A program made the translations under genes and the position numbers. A stretch of 64,000 nt of DNA from Candidatus Dojkabacteria bacterium (lineage in GTDB: Bacteria > Patescibacteriota > Dojkabacteria > B142 > OLB20): positions 322,335-386,334 of the forward strand of contig DAOMOX010000001.1 in assembly GCA_035444565.1 (NCBI GenBank). The letters run 5' to 3'. Below are positions 6,282-44,611 of this stretch, in pieces (position 1 is the stretch's first letter; every line of letters begins with the position of its first letter). A model generated the notes under the pieces. It was not told where the DNA came from, ran no database searches, and was given only the letters and a program-made list of their open reading frames with translations.

Positions 6282-8387
6282 TTATCTCGCTTTATACTGG
6301 AAATAACCATTACAGTGAAGTAAATCACGAGAATAAAATCCTCCAACACATGCTCCAGCCTCGTTACTCCAAGTGCCTGTTGAAAAGGTATCAGGATCTT
6401 CGGTCTGATAGACAGTAGTTCCAATTGTAATCTTATCTACGTATACGTCCCTCTGAGTACCATCGTTAATAAATTTAATTTTTACCTGAGTTACATCAAA
6501 CGGAACGTTGTGTGTGTATCTATAATTCCCATATGTCGTTCCCATAACATCAAAAGTATGAACTGTAGGCTGTGTTGTTGTAGGATCACCTATTTTAATT
6601 TCTAGTTTCGGCCATACTCCTGATTCACTCCTGGGATATCTAGCCTTAGCTCTCACAATTATGCGTTTTGCACTTGGGTAGGTAGTAGTCGGAACAATTG
6701 TGCCAACTGATGTTGGGATTGGTGTATTATCAGGAGCATTTTCAGAGTTTAATTCAATTGCACCAATATCTGGCATTGATACTCTGGCACTCTTCAAATA
6801 ATCCTGTGATCTAACCGATGTAGGTATACCTGTGTTATTAGAAGGACCAGCACTTGTACCTGCATTTATCGAGATACTATTACTTATTGGATAATAATTA
6901 GCAACATTTACTGCTGTTAATAGCTCACTCAGATTTAAATTGTCTGGTCCAATATTTGGATATTTAATGTTTAAAGGAATCGTAGAATTAACCAATCCTG
7001 GATTATCCTGAAAAACATTACCGGTGCCTTTTATAGAGGTTGATAGTGCCTTAGGAAAAATATTATTACGCACTGTCAGGGCATCATTACCACTTAATTT
7101 GATTGTGATTTTTGATGTTGGGTTTTTTCTTCGATCAAATATGTTATTCTCTAATATTCCACTAACTTTAGGATCCCCACTTTTAGCTGCTTCATGCTGA
7201 ACGCTCAAAAGTGTAGATAATTCATTTCCCGCAATCAATGTGTTGTTTCCAAAATATATTCGATTATTATCGCCTATATGTGATTTATTTGAGCCAGTAA
7301 TAAAAAACCCCATATTTACTATCAAATTATTGTAAATGGCAATGTTTGTATTCATTACATTTCCTGTTTTTAGATGACCCTTTTCATTTCTAAGTCCAAA
7401 CCTCCAAAATCCTGTGGCATCGGTATCCTCATCTCCACCTGCCTTAGGTTTCTTCTCTTCAGGAGCGTAGAAAAGATTATTCCTTACTACTGCATCTTCA
7501 ACCATCCCAGCATAAAAGCTATTTTTGTTTCCAACTACTGTGTTATCTTCAAACAATAAGTCTTTTGAACCGGGCTGGGGTGCTAATTCACCCTCTCCCC
7601 ATGCAAAAGTATTACCTCTAACAACAGAATTCATCCCACCTATGGCTGCACTAATATTTACACAATATTTCAATTCTAATTCACTTAGTGGGGTATCTTT
7701 TGGTTGACAAGCACCTGGTACCCGAACATGATACTCATCTCCCACAGAAGTTCTGGTCATACTATTATTAAGAAATTGAAAATTATCCATTCTTGCAGGA
7801 TAATCACTTTCAGATTCATCAGGATTTGCATACAAACCAGATGAAATCGTCCAGTCAATGATTACATTTTTTACAGTCACATTCTTCATTGTTCCACCAT
7901 TCTCTGTAGAAATTCCCAAACCTCTACCACAAGAGTTTCTTAGGAATAGGCCATCAATAGTTACATTGTTAGTATTCCTTAGTGATAGCAGTGCAGCGAA
8001 TCTTCCTTGTGATGAACACCTACTATTCCATACATTTACAATATTGTCCCAGCTATTATTTAACATTCCAGGCGCAAAACCTCCGTCTATAATAGCTTTA
8101 TGACGATTTTCAGCTTTCCAAGTCAGTCCACTTTTTTCAATTCGAGAATATGCAGGATAAATACCATCTTTGAGAATAATTGTGTCGCCAGGAGAAGCTG
8201 AAGTATCGGCTTTTTTCATGGTTTTCCACGGACTAGTATTTGTACCTGCGTTGGTATCGGACCCATTTGGCGAAAGATAATAGATCGACGCAGCAGAATT
8301 ATCTTCAGGAGCTAAATCCCCCATGAATAAAACTAAATAAACAGACAGAGAAATCACCGATAATACAAGAACTATACCAATAAACAA
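6282..8387 (-). CDS. Secreted right-handed parallel beta-helix protein (DUF1565/pectate-lyase-like) with C-terminal beta-sandwich (possible CBM); paralog 1
   Basis: 701 aa. N-terminal TM/signal. YYLSPNGSDTNAGT...PWKTMKKA...PGDTIILKDGIY start typical of DUF1565 beta-helix proteins. Repetitive N-rich beta-helix rungs. No dockerin-like tail. Confidence 0.6.
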   Translation of the reverse strand: MFIGIVLVLSVISLSVYLVLFMGDLAPEDNSAASIYYLSPNGSDTNAGTNTSPWKTMKKADTSASPGDTIILKDGIYPAYSRIEKSGLTWKAENRHKAIIDGGFAPGMLNNSWDNIVNVWNSRCSSQGRFAALLSLRNTNNVTIDGLFLRNSCGRGLGISTENGGTMKNVTVKNVIIDWTISSGLYANPDESESDYPARMDNFQFLNNSMTRTSVGDEYHVRVPGACQPKDTPLSELELKYCVNISAAIGGMNSVVRGNTFAWGEGELAPQPGSKDLLFEDNTVVGNKNSFYAGMVEDAVVRNNLFYAPEEKKPKAGGDEDTDATGFWRFGLRNEKGHLKTGNVMNTNIAIYNNLIVNMGFFITGSNKSHIGDNNRIYFGNNTLIAGNELSTLLSVQHEAAKSGDPKVSGILENNIFDRRKNPTSKITIKLSGNDALTVRNNIFPKALSTSIKGTGNVFQDNPGLVNSTIPLNIKYPNIGPDNLNLSELLTAVNVANYYPISNSISINAGTSAGPSNNTGIPTSVRSQDYLKSARVSMPDIGAIELNSENAPDNTPIPTSVGTIVPTTTYPSAKRIIVRAKARYPRSESGVWPKLEIKIGDPTTTQPTVHTFDVMGTTYGNYRYTHNVPFDVTQVKIKFINDGTQRDVYVDKITIGTTVYQTEDPDTFSTGTWSNEAGACVGGFYSRDLLHCNGYFQYKAR

Positions 8388-8455
8388 TTTCCTTTTTATT
8401 TATATTGTTTTGAATAAATAAATTATCTAAATTAAATTTTTTAGTTACTTAGTCT

Positions 8456-10537
8456 TTATAATGCACAACTAGTCTTCGGATAATACCTCTGTGCAAATCC
8501 TATTCCAGCTGCTCCAAAGTCTGCAATATTTAACTTCCCATCTCTATTTACATCTCTTCCTCCACAAGAACCATACTCAACATCTTTATCTGCACAAGTA
8601 TTTTTTCCAGTTCCATAGCTTTTAGCAAATTCTGCAAAGTCAGCAATACTGAATTTTCCATCTCCATCCACATCAGCTTTACCACAGATATTCCCTGTAA
8701 CTGGAAGTGTTGGTGTGGCACTTGGAACTGGTGTCAGTGCATTTGATGGTGTTGGTGTTGTACTTGGAGTAATTGAAGGCCCAGGTGTTCGAGTTAATGT
8801 CGGAGTTAAAGATGCACCAGGTGTTTGAGTTGGCGTCGCGGACTGTATTGGTGTTGGGGTACTGGTGTTATAGACCCCTCCGAACTCTATTGCCCCTATA
8901 TCAGGAGTTCCTGTCCTGGTATTTCTCAAAAAATCTTGCGATCTCACTAATTGTGGGATATTAGTTTGGTTAGCACCAGTCCCATTTGATCCTGTATTTA
9001 TTGCGGGACTATTTTGTTTTAATCGATAATTATTAATGTCTAAAGCAGCCCTTAATGCTGCGATATCTAGTGTCTCAGGTCCGATATTTGGATAAACAAG
9101 ATTCAATTCTATTAATGAGTTTACTAATCCAGGATCGTTAGTATAAACATCTCCTGTTCCTTTAACTGAATTGTCAACATTTGTTGGTAATATATTATTT
9201 CTGCGTAGGAATTGGTCATTTCCACTCAGTTGGACATTAATTCTAGCTGATGGATTCTTTCTTCGGTCGAAAATATTATTTTCCATGATTCCTGTTAACA
9301 CTCCATCACCTGAAGATCCTCCCCCATGCTGGATGTGTAGGAGCGAATCCAGTTCCTTTCCAGCAACCAAAGTATTATTTCCAAAGTATATTTGTCTGTT
9401 GTCCCCTATGTGACTACCATTTGTCCCTGTAATAAAGAATCCCATATTAACTATTAAATTATTATAGATAGCAATATTTGTATTCATTGTAGTGGCCTCA
9501 TCCGTATGCCCCTTTTCATTTCGTAGTCCAAGTCTCCAATACCCAGTGGCCTCACTATCTTCATCACCGCCAGCTTTGGGTTTTTTCAATTCTGGGGCAT
9601 AGAATGTATTATTTCTTGCTATAGCATCCTGTACCATTCCAGCATAAAAACTATTTTTATTTCCAACTACAACATTATTTTCAAATAAAAATCCTTTGGA
9701 CCCTGGTTGGGGAGCCAATTCACCTTCACCCCATGCAAATACATTTCCTCTTATAATTGAATTCACTCCACCAAAAGAGGCACTAATATTGACACAATAC
9801 TTTTTAATCTTTTCGTTCTCAGGAGTCGTTTTCGGCTGACAAGCACCTGCCACCCTGACATTATATTCGTCACCTATAGATGTTCTTGTCATAACGTTAT
9901 CAATAAACTGAAAATTATTCATTTTTGTTTGAAATACATCTTTTTGACTGAAAGCCGGCTCTGCATATATACCCGAGGTAGAAGTCCAATCTATCATCGA
10001 ATTTTTGATGGTAATGTTATTGGCAGTTGCACTTGTTGTAGACGTGGAAACTCCTATCCCTCTACCACAGGAATTCCGTATGAAAAGACCATCAATTGTC
10101 ACGTGATCAGCATCTCGAATAGCCAATAAGGCAGCAAACATCCCTTTGTTTGAGCATTTTGTATTCCAAACTGAAACGATATTATTCCAGTTGTTATTCA
10201 ACATCCCCGGAGCGAAGCCCCCATCAATTATAGCTTTATGCTTATTTTCAGCTCTCCAAGTAACGTTCGATTTCCTAAGGGTGATGTAACCGGAATAGAC
10301 ACCATCTTTAAGAACAACAGTATCGCCAGGAGAAGCGCTTGCATCAGCCTTCACCAAAGTTTTCCATGGACTCGAAGTTGTCCCTGGGTTGCTATCGGAT
10401 CCATTTGGAGATAAGTAGTAAATTGTTGCTGCCGAGTCATCCTCGGGTGACCACTCTTGGAACACTAATAAACTCGAAACCATAAGGACTAGTATCCCTA
10501 TTACTGCTAAAGCTAGTGTAAATACTGGTTTCCTCAT
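8456..10537 (-). CDS. Secreted parallel beta-helix protein with Thr/Pro linker and C-terminal Cys-containing dockerin-like Ca-binding module; paralog 2
   Basis: 693 aa. About 70% identical to paralog 1 in the beta-helix part. C-terminus DVDGDGKFSIADFAEF...DVNRDGKLNIADFGAA has two dockerin-type DxDxDG loops plus 4 Cys. Confidence 0.6.
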   Translation of the reverse strand: MRKPVFTLALAVIGILVLMVSSLLVFQEWSPEDDSAATIYYLSPNGSDSNPGTTSSPWKTLVKADASASPGDTVVLKDGVYSGYITLRKSNVTWRAENKHKAIIDGGFAPGMLNNNWNNIVSVWNTKCSNKGMFAALLAIRDADHVTIDGLFIRNSCGRGIGVSTSTTSATANNITIKNSMIDWTSTSGIYAEPAFSQKDVFQTKMNNFQFIDNVMTRTSIGDEYNVRVAGACQPKTTPENEKIKKYCVNISASFGGVNSIIRGNVFAWGEGELAPQPGSKGFLFENNVVVGNKNSFYAGMVQDAIARNNTFYAPELKKPKAGGDEDSEATGYWRLGLRNEKGHTDEATTMNTNIAIYNNLIVNMGFFITGTNGSHIGDNRQIYFGNNTLVAGKELDSLLHIQHGGGSSGDGVLTGIMENNIFDRRKNPSARINVQLSGNDQFLRRNNILPTNVDNSVKGTGDVYTNDPGLVNSLIELNLVYPNIGPETLDIAALRAALDINNYRLKQNSPAINTGSNGTGANQTNIPQLVRSQDFLRNTRTGTPDIGAIEFGGVYNTSTPTPIQSATPTQTPGASLTPTLTRTPGPSITPSTTPTPSNALTPVPSATPTLPVTGNICGKADVDGDGKFSIADFAEFAKSYGTGKNTCADKDVEYGSCGGRDVNRDGKLNIADFGAAGIGFAQRYYPKTSCAL

Positions 10538-10586
10538 AACTAACGATAATAATTATTAAATATCTAAATTTCTTTATACTTCAATC

Positions 10587-12566
10587 TTATATTGCGCAGC
10601 TTAATTTCGGATAATACCTCTGTGCAAATCCTATTCCGGCTGCTCCAAAATCTGCTATATTTAATTTCCCATCTCTATTTACATCTCGACCACCACAAGA
10701 TCCATATTCAACATCTTTATCTGCACATGTATTTTTTCCTGTTCCGTAACTTTTAGCAAACTCTGCAAAATCAGCAATACTAAATTTTCCGTCTCCATCG
10801 ATGTCTGCTTTCCCACATATATTTCCCGTAATTGGTGGAGTTGGAGTATTTGACGCAGCAAGAGGTGGTGTTGGCTTCAAAGTTAGAGTCGGTGTCAATG
10901 TTGGGGTGGACCCAAGACTTGTAGTAGGTGTTGGTGATGTTTGCACTTGTGTAGCTGTCACCAAAGGCGTAGGAGTACTGGTATTGTATACACCGCCGTA
11001 TTCGACTGCCCCAATATCTGGATTTCCTACTCTACTATTTTTGAAAAAATCTTGTGATTTCGCTAACTGTGGAATTTGATATGTAGTATGAGTTGTTGTA
11101 CTAATGCCTGCATTTATTGCTGGACTCGATTGTTTCAATCTGTAATTATTAAGATCCACAGCTGCACGCAAAGCAGTCATGTCAACAGTTGCAGCACCTA
11201 TTGCAGGTATTGGATAATTCAACTGAACCAATGAATTTTGCAATTCCGGATTCGTTGTATAGATATCACCAGGTCCTTTGGTATTGCTTTGAGCAGAAGC
11301 TGGTAAAATATTATTTCTGAATACCAAGTCATCATTCCCACTCAGCGCTGCTTTAATTGTTGCAGAAGGGTCTTTGCTTACATCGAAAATATTATTCTCA
11401 ATTAATCCTGTAATTTTGGAGTCAGACCCATCTCTGGGTGCAAAAACAATATTAAACAAATCATTTGTCTCTTTACCGGTCACTAATGTATTATGACCAA
11501 AATAAACGTTTGTAGTATTCGACGAATAATCTTTATGGTAACCGGAAAAAAGGAAACTGTTATTAAGTATTATATTGTTATAGTAAGCGACATTATTTAA
11601 TCCTGAGGCATAATTTCCCCAACGAGCATCTTTCTCATTACGTGACGAAATGTGCCAATCGTTCTCGTTACCGTTTTTCTTCTCCCAGTGGGTATTTGGA
11701 TTAAGTTGTGATTCAGGAGCCCAGAAGAGATTATTGCGCACAATCACACCATCGGCCCAACCATTATAAAAATTGTTTTTATTTCCAATAATAATATTAT
11801 CTTCAAATAATAGGTTTCGAGAACCCGTCATTGCAATTTCTCCACGTCCCCAAGCAATGATATTGCCTCTCACTACCATGTCCTCACCACTCATATGAAT
11901 ACTAATGTTTACATTGTAGTCATTGCTTGTATATACAGTATATTGATCGTTAAACGAAATTCTTGTAAGTTCATTATTTATCATCTGCAAACCTTTAGTC
12001 TTTCCAGAAACGTAAAATCCAGATACAAAAGTCCAATCAATTCTATTATTTAAAAACTTCGAGTAGTTAACATTCTCGGCAACTAAAACACCTCGACCAC
12101 AGGAGTTTCGCAAGAATAACCCCTCTACCTCAACATTATCAGCCGAAACCGCTACTAACGGAGACCACATCCCTATATTTTTACATTTAGAATCCCAGGC
12201 TGAAACAATATTCTTCCACTCCCCATTAAGTAAACCAGGTCCAAAACCTCCGTCGATAATCGCTTTATGTTTGTTTTCTGCTCTCCAAGTGGTATTGGGT
12301 TTATTGATATTAAAATATGCGCTATATGTACCGTCTTTCAGGATAACAGTATCTCCTGCAGAGATACTACTCATAGCCTTAGAGATAGTCTTCCAGGGAG
12401 ACGAGTTACTTCCGTTATTAGAATCATTCCCATTTGGGGAGAGATAATATACTGATGCTGCGCTATCGTCTTGTGGTGCCCTATCCTGATAAAACAAGAA
12501 TGCGGTGATTGCCAACAAAAAAATACCTAAGGAAAATAATCCTAAAACTACGGCTTTTTCTCTCAT
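10587..12566 (-). CDS. Secreted parallel beta-helix protein with C-terminal dockerin-like module; paralog 3
   Basis: 659 aa. Same N-terminal YYLSPNGNDSN signature. C-terminal 79 aa nearly identical to paralog 2. Confidence 0.6.
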   Translation of the reverse strand: MREKAVVLGLFSLGIFLLAITAFLFYQDRAPQDDSAASVYYLSPNGNDSNNGSNSSPWKTISKAMSSISAGDTVILKDGTYSAYFNINKPNTTWRAENKHKAIIDGGFGPGLLNGEWKNIVSAWDSKCKNIGMWSPLVAVSADNVEVEGLFLRNSCGRGVLVAENVNYSKFLNNRIDWTFVSGFYVSGKTKGLQMINNELTRISFNDQYTVYTSNDYNVNISIHMSGEDMVVRGNIIAWGRGEIAMTGSRNLLFEDNIIIGNKNNFYNGWADGVIVRNNLFWAPESQLNPNTHWEKKNGNENDWHISSRNEKDARWGNYASGLNNVAYYNNIILNNSFLFSGYHKDYSSNTTNVYFGHNTLVTGKETNDLFNIVFAPRDGSDSKITGLIENNIFDVSKDPSATIKAALSGNDDLVFRNNILPASAQSNTKGPGDIYTTNPELQNSLVQLNYPIPAIGAATVDMTALRAAVDLNNYRLKQSSPAINAGISTTTHTTYQIPQLAKSQDFFKNSRVGNPDIGAVEYGGVYNTSTPTPLVTATQVQTSPTPTTSLGSTPTLTPTLTLKPTPPLAASNTPTPPITGNICGKADIDGDGKFSIADFAEFAKSYGTGKNTCADKDVEYGSCGGRDVNRDGKLNIADFGAAGIGFAQRYYPKLSCAI

Positions 12567-19461: not shown

Positions 19462-19653
19462 TTCATTAAGTTATGATGTAAAGAATACTTGAAACTTGCT
19501 AGGTCGTTAATAGAATGAATTATACAATTTAATTACCTCAAAATGTTAATTTCTTTATTCAACACTTTATAATACTCTATGCTAATTGGTATAATAACCA
19601 ACATTGTATAGTTTCTAAAAGTCATTTGAAAACAGTTATTTAATACTTTCGAT

Positions 19654-19725
19654 TCCGCGGTAGCTCAATGGTGGAGCGATCGGCTGTTAACCGAATGGTT
19701 AGAGGTTCGAGTCCTCTCCGCGGAG
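19654..19725 (+). tRNA. tRNA-Asn (anticodon GTT)
   Basis: Cloverleaf folded by hand: acceptor TCCGCGG/CCGCGGA, D arm GCTC-AATGGTG-GAGC, anticodon arm ATCGG-CTGTTAA-CCGAA (one A.A mismatch at 27:43), T arm AGAGG-TTCGAGT-CCTCT, discriminator G. No encoded CCA. Confidence 0.8.
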
Positions 19726-19871
19726 TTGAAGGTATTAATGCATTACTAACCAATCTCATTTTAATTAGGTTCTCCCCCTCCGCAAAAGCTTCGGGGGACT
19801 AACCAGCAGTAGCGTTCGCAAGCTCACCAACTGCTGGTTTAGGAGTCCTCTCCGCGGAGTTGAAGGTATTA
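19709..19871 (+). repeat. 29-bp perfect direct repeat of the tRNA-Asn 3' end (GAGTCCTCTCCGCGGAGTTGAAGGTATTA) at 19709-19737 and 19843-19871, flanking a 105-bp structured spacer
   Basis: Read directly from sequence. Spacer 19738-19842 contains hairpins GGTTCTCCCCC...GGGGGACTAACC and CCAGCAG...CTGCTGG. Confidence 0.85.
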
Positions 19872-19894: not shown

Positions 19895-20182
19895 ATGATG
19901 GCAAAAAAGGTGTGTGATAAAGGGCATAAGTTTACAAAAAGCAGCGATTGTTTGACCTGCCCTATCTGTGCAAAGGAAGAATCAGAATCAATCTACACAA
20001 ATGGATATCCAAAAGTCGGGTCTCCAGCTTTGAATGCGCTAAAACACAATGGAATTACTCCCTCGGATTTAACAAAATATTCAGAAGAAGAATTGCTTAA
20101 AATTCATGGTATTGGCCCAAAGGCTATAGACATACTACGTATATATCTTAACGAAAAAGGCTTAAAATTTAGAAATAAGTAA
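19895..20182 (+). CDS. Small zinc-ribbon plus helix-hairpin-helix protein, putative nucleic-acid binding
   Basis: 95 aa. CDKGHKF...CLTCPIC zinc ribbon. LLKIHGIGPKAIDILRIYL HhH motif. Confidence 0.4.
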   Translation: MMAKKVCDKGHKFTKSSDCLTCPICAKEESESIYTNGYPKVGSPALNALKHNGITPSDLTKYSEEELLKIHGIGPKAIDILRIYLNEKGLKFRNK

Positions 20183-44413: not shown

Positions 44414-44487
44414 GCACCAATAGCTCAGATGGATAGAGCGCCACTTTGCGGAAGTGGAGGTCGCAGGTTCGAATCCTGCTTGGTGCA
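44414..44487 (+). tRNA. tRNA-Arg (anticodon read as GCG; verify)
   Basis: Hand fold: acceptor GCACCAA/TTGGTGC, D arm GCTC-AGATGGATA-GAGC, anticodon arm CCACT-TTGCGGA-AGTGG, T arm GCAGG-TTCGAAT-CCTGC, discriminator A. G37 fits CGN readers. Confidence 0.75.
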
Positions 44488-44611
44488 ATCCTTGAAATAC
44501 GTTTTCACCACACAGACATAATCTCAAGGTTAGACCCTTGCTTTCGCAAGGGTAACTCATCCCTATACCTCATGCTTCTGTAAGGGCTGAGTTAATCCTG
44601 CTTGGTGCAAT
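44472..44611 (+). repeat. 18-bp direct repeat of the tRNA-Arg 3' end (AATCCTGCTTGGTGCAAT) at 44472-44489 and 44594-44611, flanking a 104-bp structured spacer
   Basis: Read directly. Spacer 44490-44593 has hairpins CCTTGA...TCAAGG and CCCTTGC-TTTC-GCAAGGG. Confidence 0.85.

Follow-up and report, generated by a model that had tools for sequence, protein, structure and literature searches.

The DNA analyzed here, a 64-kb stretch from Candidatus Dojkabacteria, a lineage of the Candidate Phyla Radiation (CPR), is referred to below as the window; it is chromosomal, encoding rpoB/rpoC, ftsQ/ftsA/ftsZ, a sigma-70 factor, dnaA/dnaN and dnaG, and close homologues of a neighboring gene carry the name of this lineage. 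Both of its tRNA genes, one for tRNA-Asn and one for tRNA-Arg, carry one unit each of a small structured module whose terminal part repeats the 3' end of the adjacent tRNA, and 10 kb added at each end of the window contained no further tRNA genes and no modules. In layout the module corresponds to the tRNA-linked repeats (TLRs) already known from E. coli, but its sequence family is new and so is the phylum in which the layout occurs. We assign a probability of about 55% to the reading in which the interval behind the tRNA-Asn gene is one unit of a TLR-type module, i.e., a non-coding RNA domain that would be transcribed with the tRNA and released by shared processing.

At the Asn locus, the 29-mer GAGTCCTCTCCGCGGAGTTGAAGGTATTA has exactly two occurrences, and 0 of 100 shuffles gave any match. 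The repeat consists of the last 17 nt of the tRNA, from G57 in the T-loop to the discriminator base G73, and 12 nt of trailer; the 105-bp interval between its copies contains no open reading frame (ORF). The repeat at the Arg locus is 18 bp long, starts at A58 and includes 16 tRNA bases. Both units begin 1 nt past the end of the tRNA, on the same strand. The tRNA genes were called with ARAGORN and Rfam, the ARAGORN ends at the Asn locus (19653-19726) being one base too wide per side. The Asn locus is identical base for base in the NCBI assembly GCA_035444845.1 and in an activated-sludge contig, and the Arg locus in ENA ERZ773355, Logan SRR1763381 and ERZ747224. The original prediction had described a 29-bp perfect duplicate of the tRNA-Asn 3' end, an insert too small to encode anything, and a second tRNA at 44414 with the same architecture and a related spacer, and all three descriptions were borne out, the duplicate by exact repeat search and in independent assemblies. 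Its proviso that the repeat might be an assembly duplication is ruled out by the identity of the loci in four independent assemblies from NCBI, ENA and Logan.

The core of the unit, 84 nt at the Asn locus, is a three-way junction with a closing helix (P0) and two hairpins (Table 1). RNAalifold, applied to an alignment of ten sequences, and pair counting independently led to the same junction, which comprises 26 pairs; 90.2% of cells are paired, versus no more than 52.8% when the partners are slid. Changes on both sides were found in 11 pairs (31 cells), and 0 of 500 shuffles reached the observed score. The fold z-scores of the eight cores tested range from -2.4 to -4.9. P0 takes in the first five bases of the tRNA-tail copy and includes 17 G.U cells; it therefore forms only on the tRNA-sense strand, pointing to RNA. 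What remains 3' of P0, a tail of ~12 nt, is predicted to be unpaired, and in the Asn unit it corresponds to the T-stem and acceptor 3' strands plus the discriminator. The two hairpins contain 161 Watson-Crick, 2 G.U and 4 A.C cells, from which the strand is not assignable. Both of these hairpins had been recognized originally, though with an outer GGTT/AACC pairing around hairpin 1 that did not hold: AACC (19801-19804) pairs with GGTT (19836-19839) at the base of hairpin 2, and other copies have the covarying versions AATC/GATT and AACT/AGTT of this pairing.

Two additional pairings were considered and rejected. A helix in which the module body would pair at long range with the tRNA tail beats shuffles only in some units (p = 0.01 for the window Asn unit; most others not significant), and an alternative helix between the hairpin-1 3' strand and A(A/G)TCC is 90% pairable with covariation no better than that of shuffles (226/500). 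A search of the window and the related loci against Rfam 15 gave no spacer family at its gathering score, only tRNA reaching threshold, and at E <= 10 the spacers returned weak chance matches, RtT not among them. These are HCV_SLVII on the minus strand (22.7 bits, gathering score 63) and two small RNA (sRNA) families (12.6-15.7 bits, gathering scores 50-52).

A covariance model of the spacers, which the original prediction had suggested building, was constructed from ten cores (R1) and used to search ~300 kb, the window and related DNA. Within the window R1 matches only the two cores. Significant matches in relatives were found in L006/L007/L011/L016, L009/L010, L013, L014, L022 and L008, and 100% of the significant matches lie directly 3' of a tRNA gene. 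The loci as a whole have units behind tRNA-Asn, tRNA-Arg and tRNA-Gln. In the window and at every Dojkabacteria locus, the unit ends in the 3' end of the local tRNA, and at all loci the tail copy begins at G57/A58. The unit length is 122-134 bp for the window and 131-162 bp among relatives, and the duplications, which reach into the trailer, vary in length (18, 29 and ~50 bp). In the alignment of 14 units, the linker ranges from 10 to 45 nt between loci, and the TTGAA motif at its start is common to units behind Asn and Arg genes. Hairpin 2 exists in two subtypes, alpha with the loop ...GTTCGCAAGCTCAC... and beta with ...CCTCAT.CTTCGG..., each conserved across lineages. The alpha type stands behind the window tRNA-Asn and the beta type behind the window tRNA-Arg, and both occur together in the arrays of L013 and L014.

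The orthologous loci were retrieved by means of the flanking RodZ-like and 95-aa proteins. For the Arg locus they are L006/L007/L011/L016 (89% identical), L010 (77%) and L019, L020 and L021 (58-66%), and for the Asn locus L022 (84%). In L006/L007/L011/L016, the tRNA-Arg is followed by a 162-bp unit whose hairpin 1, TTAGGGTCTCCCTCTTCGCCAAAGCTTCGAGGGATTAACC, is ~85% identical to hairpin 1 of the window Asn unit; after this proximal unit come a second copy of the tRNA tail with 34 nt of trailer and then a decayed unit resembling the window Arg unit. The Arg locus of L010 contains 2.6 near-identical tandem units with a period of 131-132 bp. L019, L020 and L021 have the orthologous tRNA-Arg without any unit, the intergenic DNA being no longer alignable at that divergence. 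No empty Asn site was found, the sole Asn orthologue, L022, being occupied by the unit and repeat seen in the window. Public genomes and metagenomes were also scanned with a strict hairpin-1 pattern, which gave only three loci each. These scans revealed an array of ~3.6 units behind a tRNA-Asn in another uncultured bacterium (L013) and, in L014, two units behind a tRNA-Gln, both of which close with a copy of the Gln tail that has one mismatch. One genome match inside a coding region of Cyclobacteriaceae was discarded as a chance match. Decay is seen in distal units, namely unit 2 of L006, unit 3 of L010 and the 1-mismatch copies of L014.

Several features of the L013 array were recorded in addition. 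At L013:1628-1668 and 1904-1944, the tail that terminates the alpha-type units is that of another tRNA (AATCC..CTGCTCGAC(T/C)AG) plus CCA, and the next unit starts right after the foreign-tail CCA. This hints that a unit can take a captured tail along when it moves, and the tail may come from a mature tRNA. Every tail copy of this array has a 19-20 nt palindrome, CCTGTCTGCCGACAGGCAGG, inserted after GA(A/G)TC (L013:1633-1651, 1784-1802 and 1909-1927), and this palindrome is absent from the functional tRNA-Asn of L013. In L014, another hairpin-containing unit is present in three copies behind a tRNA-Gly(TCC) (L014:3328-3530); these units each start with the T-arm-like GGTTCG(A/G)TG, and none contains a copy of the tRNA-Gly tail.

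Comparison of the window with L022 indicates how strongly the Asn module is constrained. Third codon positions in the flanking genes show 60-62% identity and the intergenic DNA upstream shows 81%, and in the 218 nt from the tRNA to the end of the repeat there are eight differences, all within the 146 nt from the module to the repeat (94.5% identical). Four of them lie in the loop of hairpin 1, two just before the core, and one each at 19731 and 19865; hairpin 2, P0 and repeat copy 2 are identical, save for 19865. The module is thus under strong purifying selection and constrained about as tightly as the tRNA. Positions 19731 and 19865 show the same G-to-A difference in both trailer copies (G/G in the window vs A/A in L022); this concerted substitution indicates that the repeats are kept identical by conversion or re-duplication. 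Taken with the family behind Asn, Arg and Gln genes and the covarying helices, this selection upholds the original preference for a recurring miniature element or non-coding RNA over a one-off deletion scar.

The 5' side of the Asn locus differs between the two sequences. L022:9506-9775, orthologous to window 19620-19670, has a structured insertion of ~200-230 bp inside the tRNA-Asn locus, in its 5' part. On either side of the insertion lies a direct repeat of ~32 bp, made up of ATTTAGTACTTTCGAT and tRNA positions 1-16 and ending in the D-loop. The window is the empty site for this insertion, an event that mirrors the 3' units. A second non-coding family was also seen upstream of tRNA genes (L022:9560-9640; L013:1229-1300 and 1339-1412; L014:4400-4450, minus strand), with the conserved hairpin CCCG(C/T)AAA..AGC..GCG.AGTT(A/G)T(G/A)CGGG and C-G/T-A covariation. 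It forms two tandem copies in L013 with a TATAAT-like box before each, has no Rfam match and is absent from the window.

The features of the two loci are collected in Table 1. The promoter-like site upstream of the tRNA-Asn is the presumed start of a transcript of tRNA plus module, and no other plus-strand promoter-like site and no terminator-like site were found between it and the downstream gene; there is no T-run and no intrinsic terminator was predicted. That gene encodes a 95-aa protein with helix-hairpin-helix and zinc-ribbon features, which starts at 19895, 24 nt past the repeat. The downstream genes differ by locus, being the 95-aa protein, a RodZ-like protein or, in L013, a gene on the opposite strand. 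As the original prediction had stated for the Asn locus, no integrase lies nearby: none, nor any other recombinase, was found within ~10 kb of any locus, either by scanning neighboring genes of the window with Pfam or in the annotation precomputed for the orthologous loci. IMG/VR, scanned twice by pattern, and GenBank phages and PLSDB plasmids, searched by blastn, yielded no copy of the module. A miniature transposon, of the miniature inverted-repeat or insertion-sequence-derived kind, was rejected on two grounds. The direct repeat of 18-29 bp is beyond a short (2-14 bp) target duplication, and the paired segments are internal hairpins and a 6-bp G.U-containing closing helix, with no terminal inverted repeats.

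Table 1. Coordinates of the features at the tRNA-Asn and tRNA-Arg loci of the window.
Feature	Position	Strand	Basis or remark
Promoter-like site, TTTATA-18-TATAAT with TG	19566-19595	+	Consensus match only
tRNA-Asn(GTT), intact, no encoded CCA	19654-19725	+	ARAGORN; Rfam tRNA, 66.7 bits
Repeat copy 1: tRNA positions 57-73 (19709-19725) and 12-nt trailer TTGAAGGTATTA	19709-19737	+	Exact repeat search
AT-rich trailer/linker, opening with TTGAA	19726-19764	+	14-unit alignment
Core module, three-way junction	19765-19848	+	R1, 95.3 bits; RNAalifold; pair counts; fold z = -3.5
P0 closing helix, GGUUCU with GGAGUC	19768-19773/19842-19847		RNAalifold, n = 10
Hairpin 1, plus two inner pairs	19774-19778/19793-19797		RNAalifold
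Hairpin 2, plus three inner pairs	19801-19810/19830-19839		RNAalifold
Repeat copy 2	19843-19871	+	19843-19847 in P0; 19848-19859 tail; 19860-19871 duplicated trailer
tRNA-Arg(GCG), intact	44414-44487	+	ARAGORN; Rfam, 70.6 bits
Arg-unit trailer/linker, including TTGAAATAC	44488-44524	+	14-unit alignment
Arg core module, beta-type hairpin 2	44525-44598	+	R1, 44.6 bits, E = 1e-10; fold z = -3.9
Arg hairpin 1	44534-44541/44546-44553	+	
Arg hairpin 2	44554-44564/44583-44593	+	
tRNA-Arg 3'-end copy (A58 to A73) and 2 nt	44594-44611	+	Identical to 44472-44489

Two other observations concern the window at large. The cumulative GC skew has its minimum (-1.74) at 44-46 kb, where the tRNA-Arg unit is located ~1.4 kb upstream of dnaA/dnaN, probably next to the replication origin. 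On the minus strand at 6282-12566, there are three consecutive paralogues of ~660-700 aa with Pel9A-like beta-helix domains, one of them with CBM60, according to annotation taken from the identical contig L024.

In the TLR-type reading, a unit would be made up of an AT-rich linker, a three-way junction of ~84 nt and a copy of the last 16-17 nt of the cognate tRNA. The tRNA promoter would drive the module as part of the tRNA precursor. The module is probably co-transcribed with the tRNA, and the lack of a terminator and of a promoter of its own between tRNA and module was counted in favor of this. With the same tRNA 3' end plus trailer on both sides of the unit, the RNases that mature tRNA 3' ends might then excise the module, and the product would be a discrete RNA with a tRNA-like 3' tail and possibly a role of its own. 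At the DNA level, the repeats would offer homology for unequal recombination and gene conversion, by which arrays could expand, contract and homogenize; this would explain both the variation between 0, 1, 2 and 2.6 units and the concerted substitution. Several points weigh against this reading. The steps of transcription and processing are proposed from sequence, and the shared-processing step is weak in that, to our knowledge, a 17-nt tRNA tail alone is not a known substrate of RNase Z or RNase P. The near-pure Watson-Crick hairpins alone would fit single-stranded DNA as well as RNA, and the covariation rests on only 10 distinct sequences from few lineages. The module has no detectable sequence homology to the E. 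coli TLRs and no match to the Rfam family RtT (RF00391). Finally, the TLR model gives no account of the same core standing behind different tRNAs with local tails, and no reason for the first repeat to arise exactly at position 56/57.

An integrative origin, which we regard as unlikely though deserving of serious consideration, would make the unit a non-autonomous miniature element whose attP mimics a tRNA 3' end and which is inserted in the T-loop by a tyrosine integrase acting in trans; tandem units would be successive integrations, and the hairpins would be sites for the recombinase or accessory proteins. The repeat does run from the T-loop past the tRNA end, as with class II integrases (PMC1762012). 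Moreover, the distant L019-L021 have apparently empty sites, the unit content of the orthologous Arg locus differs between close relatives, the proximal unit of L006, Asn-like in hairpin 1, looks newer while the distal one is decayed, the same core stands behind three different tRNAs, and L022 offers a clean insertion polymorphism of another small structured element with a ~32-bp duplication. The original prediction had called the repeat a classic attL/attR signature. The T-loop start of the repeat and the apparently empty sites in distant relatives agree with this, but integration itself was not demonstrated, given that the tandem arrays are fractional and that the supposed att bases lie within P0, besides the missing integrase within ~10 kb of any locus and the missing copy in IMG/VR or in the phage and plasmid collections. 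The persistence length of duplex DNA is ~150 bp, and a unit of ~122-134 bp falls below it, which is very unfavorable for circularization. An element adapted to one tRNA tail could not restore another, while the copies in the window and in Dojkabacteria match the local tRNA. The covariation and the G.U-containing closing helix, which includes the supposed core site, point to RNA, and an att scar would not need the strong conservation of hairpin 2 and its loop. E. coli TLRs of the same layout also stand behind 5S rRNA genes (PMC8144298). On balance, integration is less well supported than the TLR-type reading.

The breakpoint at 56/57 or 57/58, found at all loci and in E. coli, and the duplications of 18, 29 and ~50 bp extending into the trailer would also suit a self-propagating element acting at the RNA level or by template switching at the tRNA T-loop/3' end and copying the target tail on insertion, which would give long and variable target duplications (18-32 bp) without a classical integrase or transposase. 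The alpha-type units of L013 bear the tail of another tRNA with CCA, as if taken from a mature tRNA, and the 5' mirror event of L022 ends at position 16, beside G18-G19, the tRNA-elbow partners of T-loop positions 55-56. We consider this improbable, something of a long shot: no reverse transcriptase or other candidate enzyme is located nearby, the copies in the window continue into genomic trailer and have no CCA, so that their source would be DNA or precursor RNA, tandem periodic arrays are explained more simply by unequal crossing-over, and we know of no such mechanism in bacteria. A cis-acting leader or attenuator of the downstream gene, at the Asn locus that of the 95-aa protein, is very improbable. 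Between the module and 19895 there is no promoter-like site, and the gene is probably read from the tRNA promoter; however, each locus has another gene downstream, it is the tRNA to which the module is linked, and there is no terminator/anti-terminator arrangement. Strongly disfavored, with hardly any probability left to it, is a functionless relic, either a decaying tandem tRNA duplicate or the deletion scar of a larger island. Distal array units do decay (the second of L006, the third of L010 and the 1-mismatch copies of L014), but the module is 94.5% identical where third codon positions are at ~60%, its helices show compensatory changes, and both hairpin-2 subtypes are conserved across lineages. 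A decayed tRNA copy was rejected on the linker itself, whose alignments with the tRNA 5' half are no better than those of shuffles (p 0.29-0.98).

Neither the TLR-type reading nor integration explains how a unit gains the tail of a new tRNA, and this is what we find most interesting. A mechanism copying the target tail on insertion is conceivable here, and the foreign CCA-bearing tails of L013 and the 5' 32-bp duplication of L022 hint at one. A broader proposal, quite unlikely in our estimation, is that the Dojkabacteria modules and the E. coli TLRs represent one general and hitherto unrecognized process in which small structured RNA genes would colonize tRNA genes, capture the local 3' tail as a working part, and spread without a classical integrase, leaving duplications of 18-32 bp. 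If so, the single-stranded 3' tail derived from the acceptor and T-stem could base-pair in trans with 5' sequence of the cognate tRNA or its precursor. Conceivable roles include those of a spare 3' half, of a natural external guide that directs RNase P, and of a sensor or decoy for nucleases directed at tRNAs. The importance of the module would grow if it proved mobile or if its tRNA-tail 3' end acted on the cognate tRNA. The same layout and T-loop breakpoint, in unrelated sequence, occur in a CPR bacterium with a reduced genome; together with the covarying junction and purifying selection, this argues for a functional layout that recurs, and against a curiosity confined to enterobacteria. Dojkabacteria also provide a second, independent system, with clear polymorphism in presence/absence and copy number, for comparative tests of processing, function and spread. 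As TLR-like units make repeats resembling attL/attR, programs that search for islands and prophages could misread them as integration scars. A search of the literature for a report of such repeats in CPR bacteria or Dojkabacteria found none.

Among known systems, the sRNAs from 3' external transcribed spacers (3'ETS), such as the tRNA-derived 3'ETS-leuZ (PMC8144298), are functional RNAs freed from the trailer of a tRNA precursor by tRNA-processing RNases, a likeness proposed for the module. They differ from it in being single trailers, with no tail copy, no tandem repeats and no family shared across tRNAs. Class II tRNA-targeting integrases (a naming that follows Williams 2002) have their crossover in the T-loop, e.g., that of mycobacteriophage Ms6 (PMC1762012). 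With elements flanked by attL/attR the module shares a direct repeat of the tRNA 3' segment from the T-loop, an intact tRNA on the left, the possibility of tandem occupation and, in relatives, apparently empty sites. In contrast to them, it has neither integrase nor cargo and a unit of only 122-162 bp, its repeat belongs to a covarying RNA structure, and the same core lies behind different tRNAs with matching local tails. Its identity starts at position 57, while the 26-bp core of Ms6 covers the whole T-arm (PMC1762012).

The TLRs of E. coli, first described in 1978, comprise 22 units at ten loci, with one to five units per locus, each identical at its 3' end to the 3' end of the upstream tRNA over ~18-19 bp; those associated with tRNAs are without known function or origin (PMC8144298). 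The nomenclature cited includes RtT/rttR at tyrT and RrA/RrB/RrF behind rrn operons (Egan & Landy 1978; Rudd 1999; Stenum et al. 2021). TLRs also follow 5S rRNA genes, and the three located downstream of rRNA operons arise by read-through, undergo processing beside the repeat, and bind Hfq and CsrA (PMC8144298). At tyrT/tyrV of E. coli K-12, we found that the 19-mer AATCCTTCCCCCACCACCA, which starts at A58 in the T-loop, recurs four more times, with a period of 178 bp, in the distal array. Each TLR unit on the minus strand of L018 (K-12, NC_000913.3 1286200-1287900) also contains an internal GGGGAAGGAT complementary to ATCCTTCCCC of the tRNA-Tyr tail copy, the duplex having -20 kcal/mol (p about 0.03 vs shuffles). 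The unit carries AAGGTTCGA, the 5' half of the tRNA-Tyr T-arm, and, taken with the tail copy, it looks like a T-arm split by an insertion of ~70 nt.

Applied to E. coli tyrT, R1 aligned all four units in register, at only 5.7-8.7 bits (E 0.07-0.6, not significant). With no homology detected by R1 or through RtT, the module is therefore classed as the same architecture and not as a TLR homologue. It differs from the TLRs in its host, Candidatus Dojkabacteria of the CPR instead of the Enterobacteriaceae, in a tail copy without CCA, because these tRNA genes do not encode it, in a repeat that reaches 12-34 nt into the trailer at two loci, and in having no small ORF like the tpr of E. coli TLRs. 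Its junction is closed by bases of the tail copy, for which the literature searched contained no description in E. coli TLRs. The parallels concern the layout as a whole. In both systems, the units are non-coding and hairpin-rich, a genome has them at several loci, and they lie immediately behind a tRNA gene on its strand, with the tRNA 3' end repeated as the last 16-19 nt of the unit. In both, the tail copy starts at T-loop position 57/58 and the tandem copy number is fractional (3.14 x 178 bp in E. coli vs 2.6 x 131 bp in L010). Both also place AGGTTC, which resembles the 5' half of a T-arm, ~80 nt before the A(A/G)TCC that opens the tail copy; in the E. coli units, AAGGTTC stands ~80 nt before the ...GAGT|AATCC junction, in the same frame as in the Dojkabacteria core.

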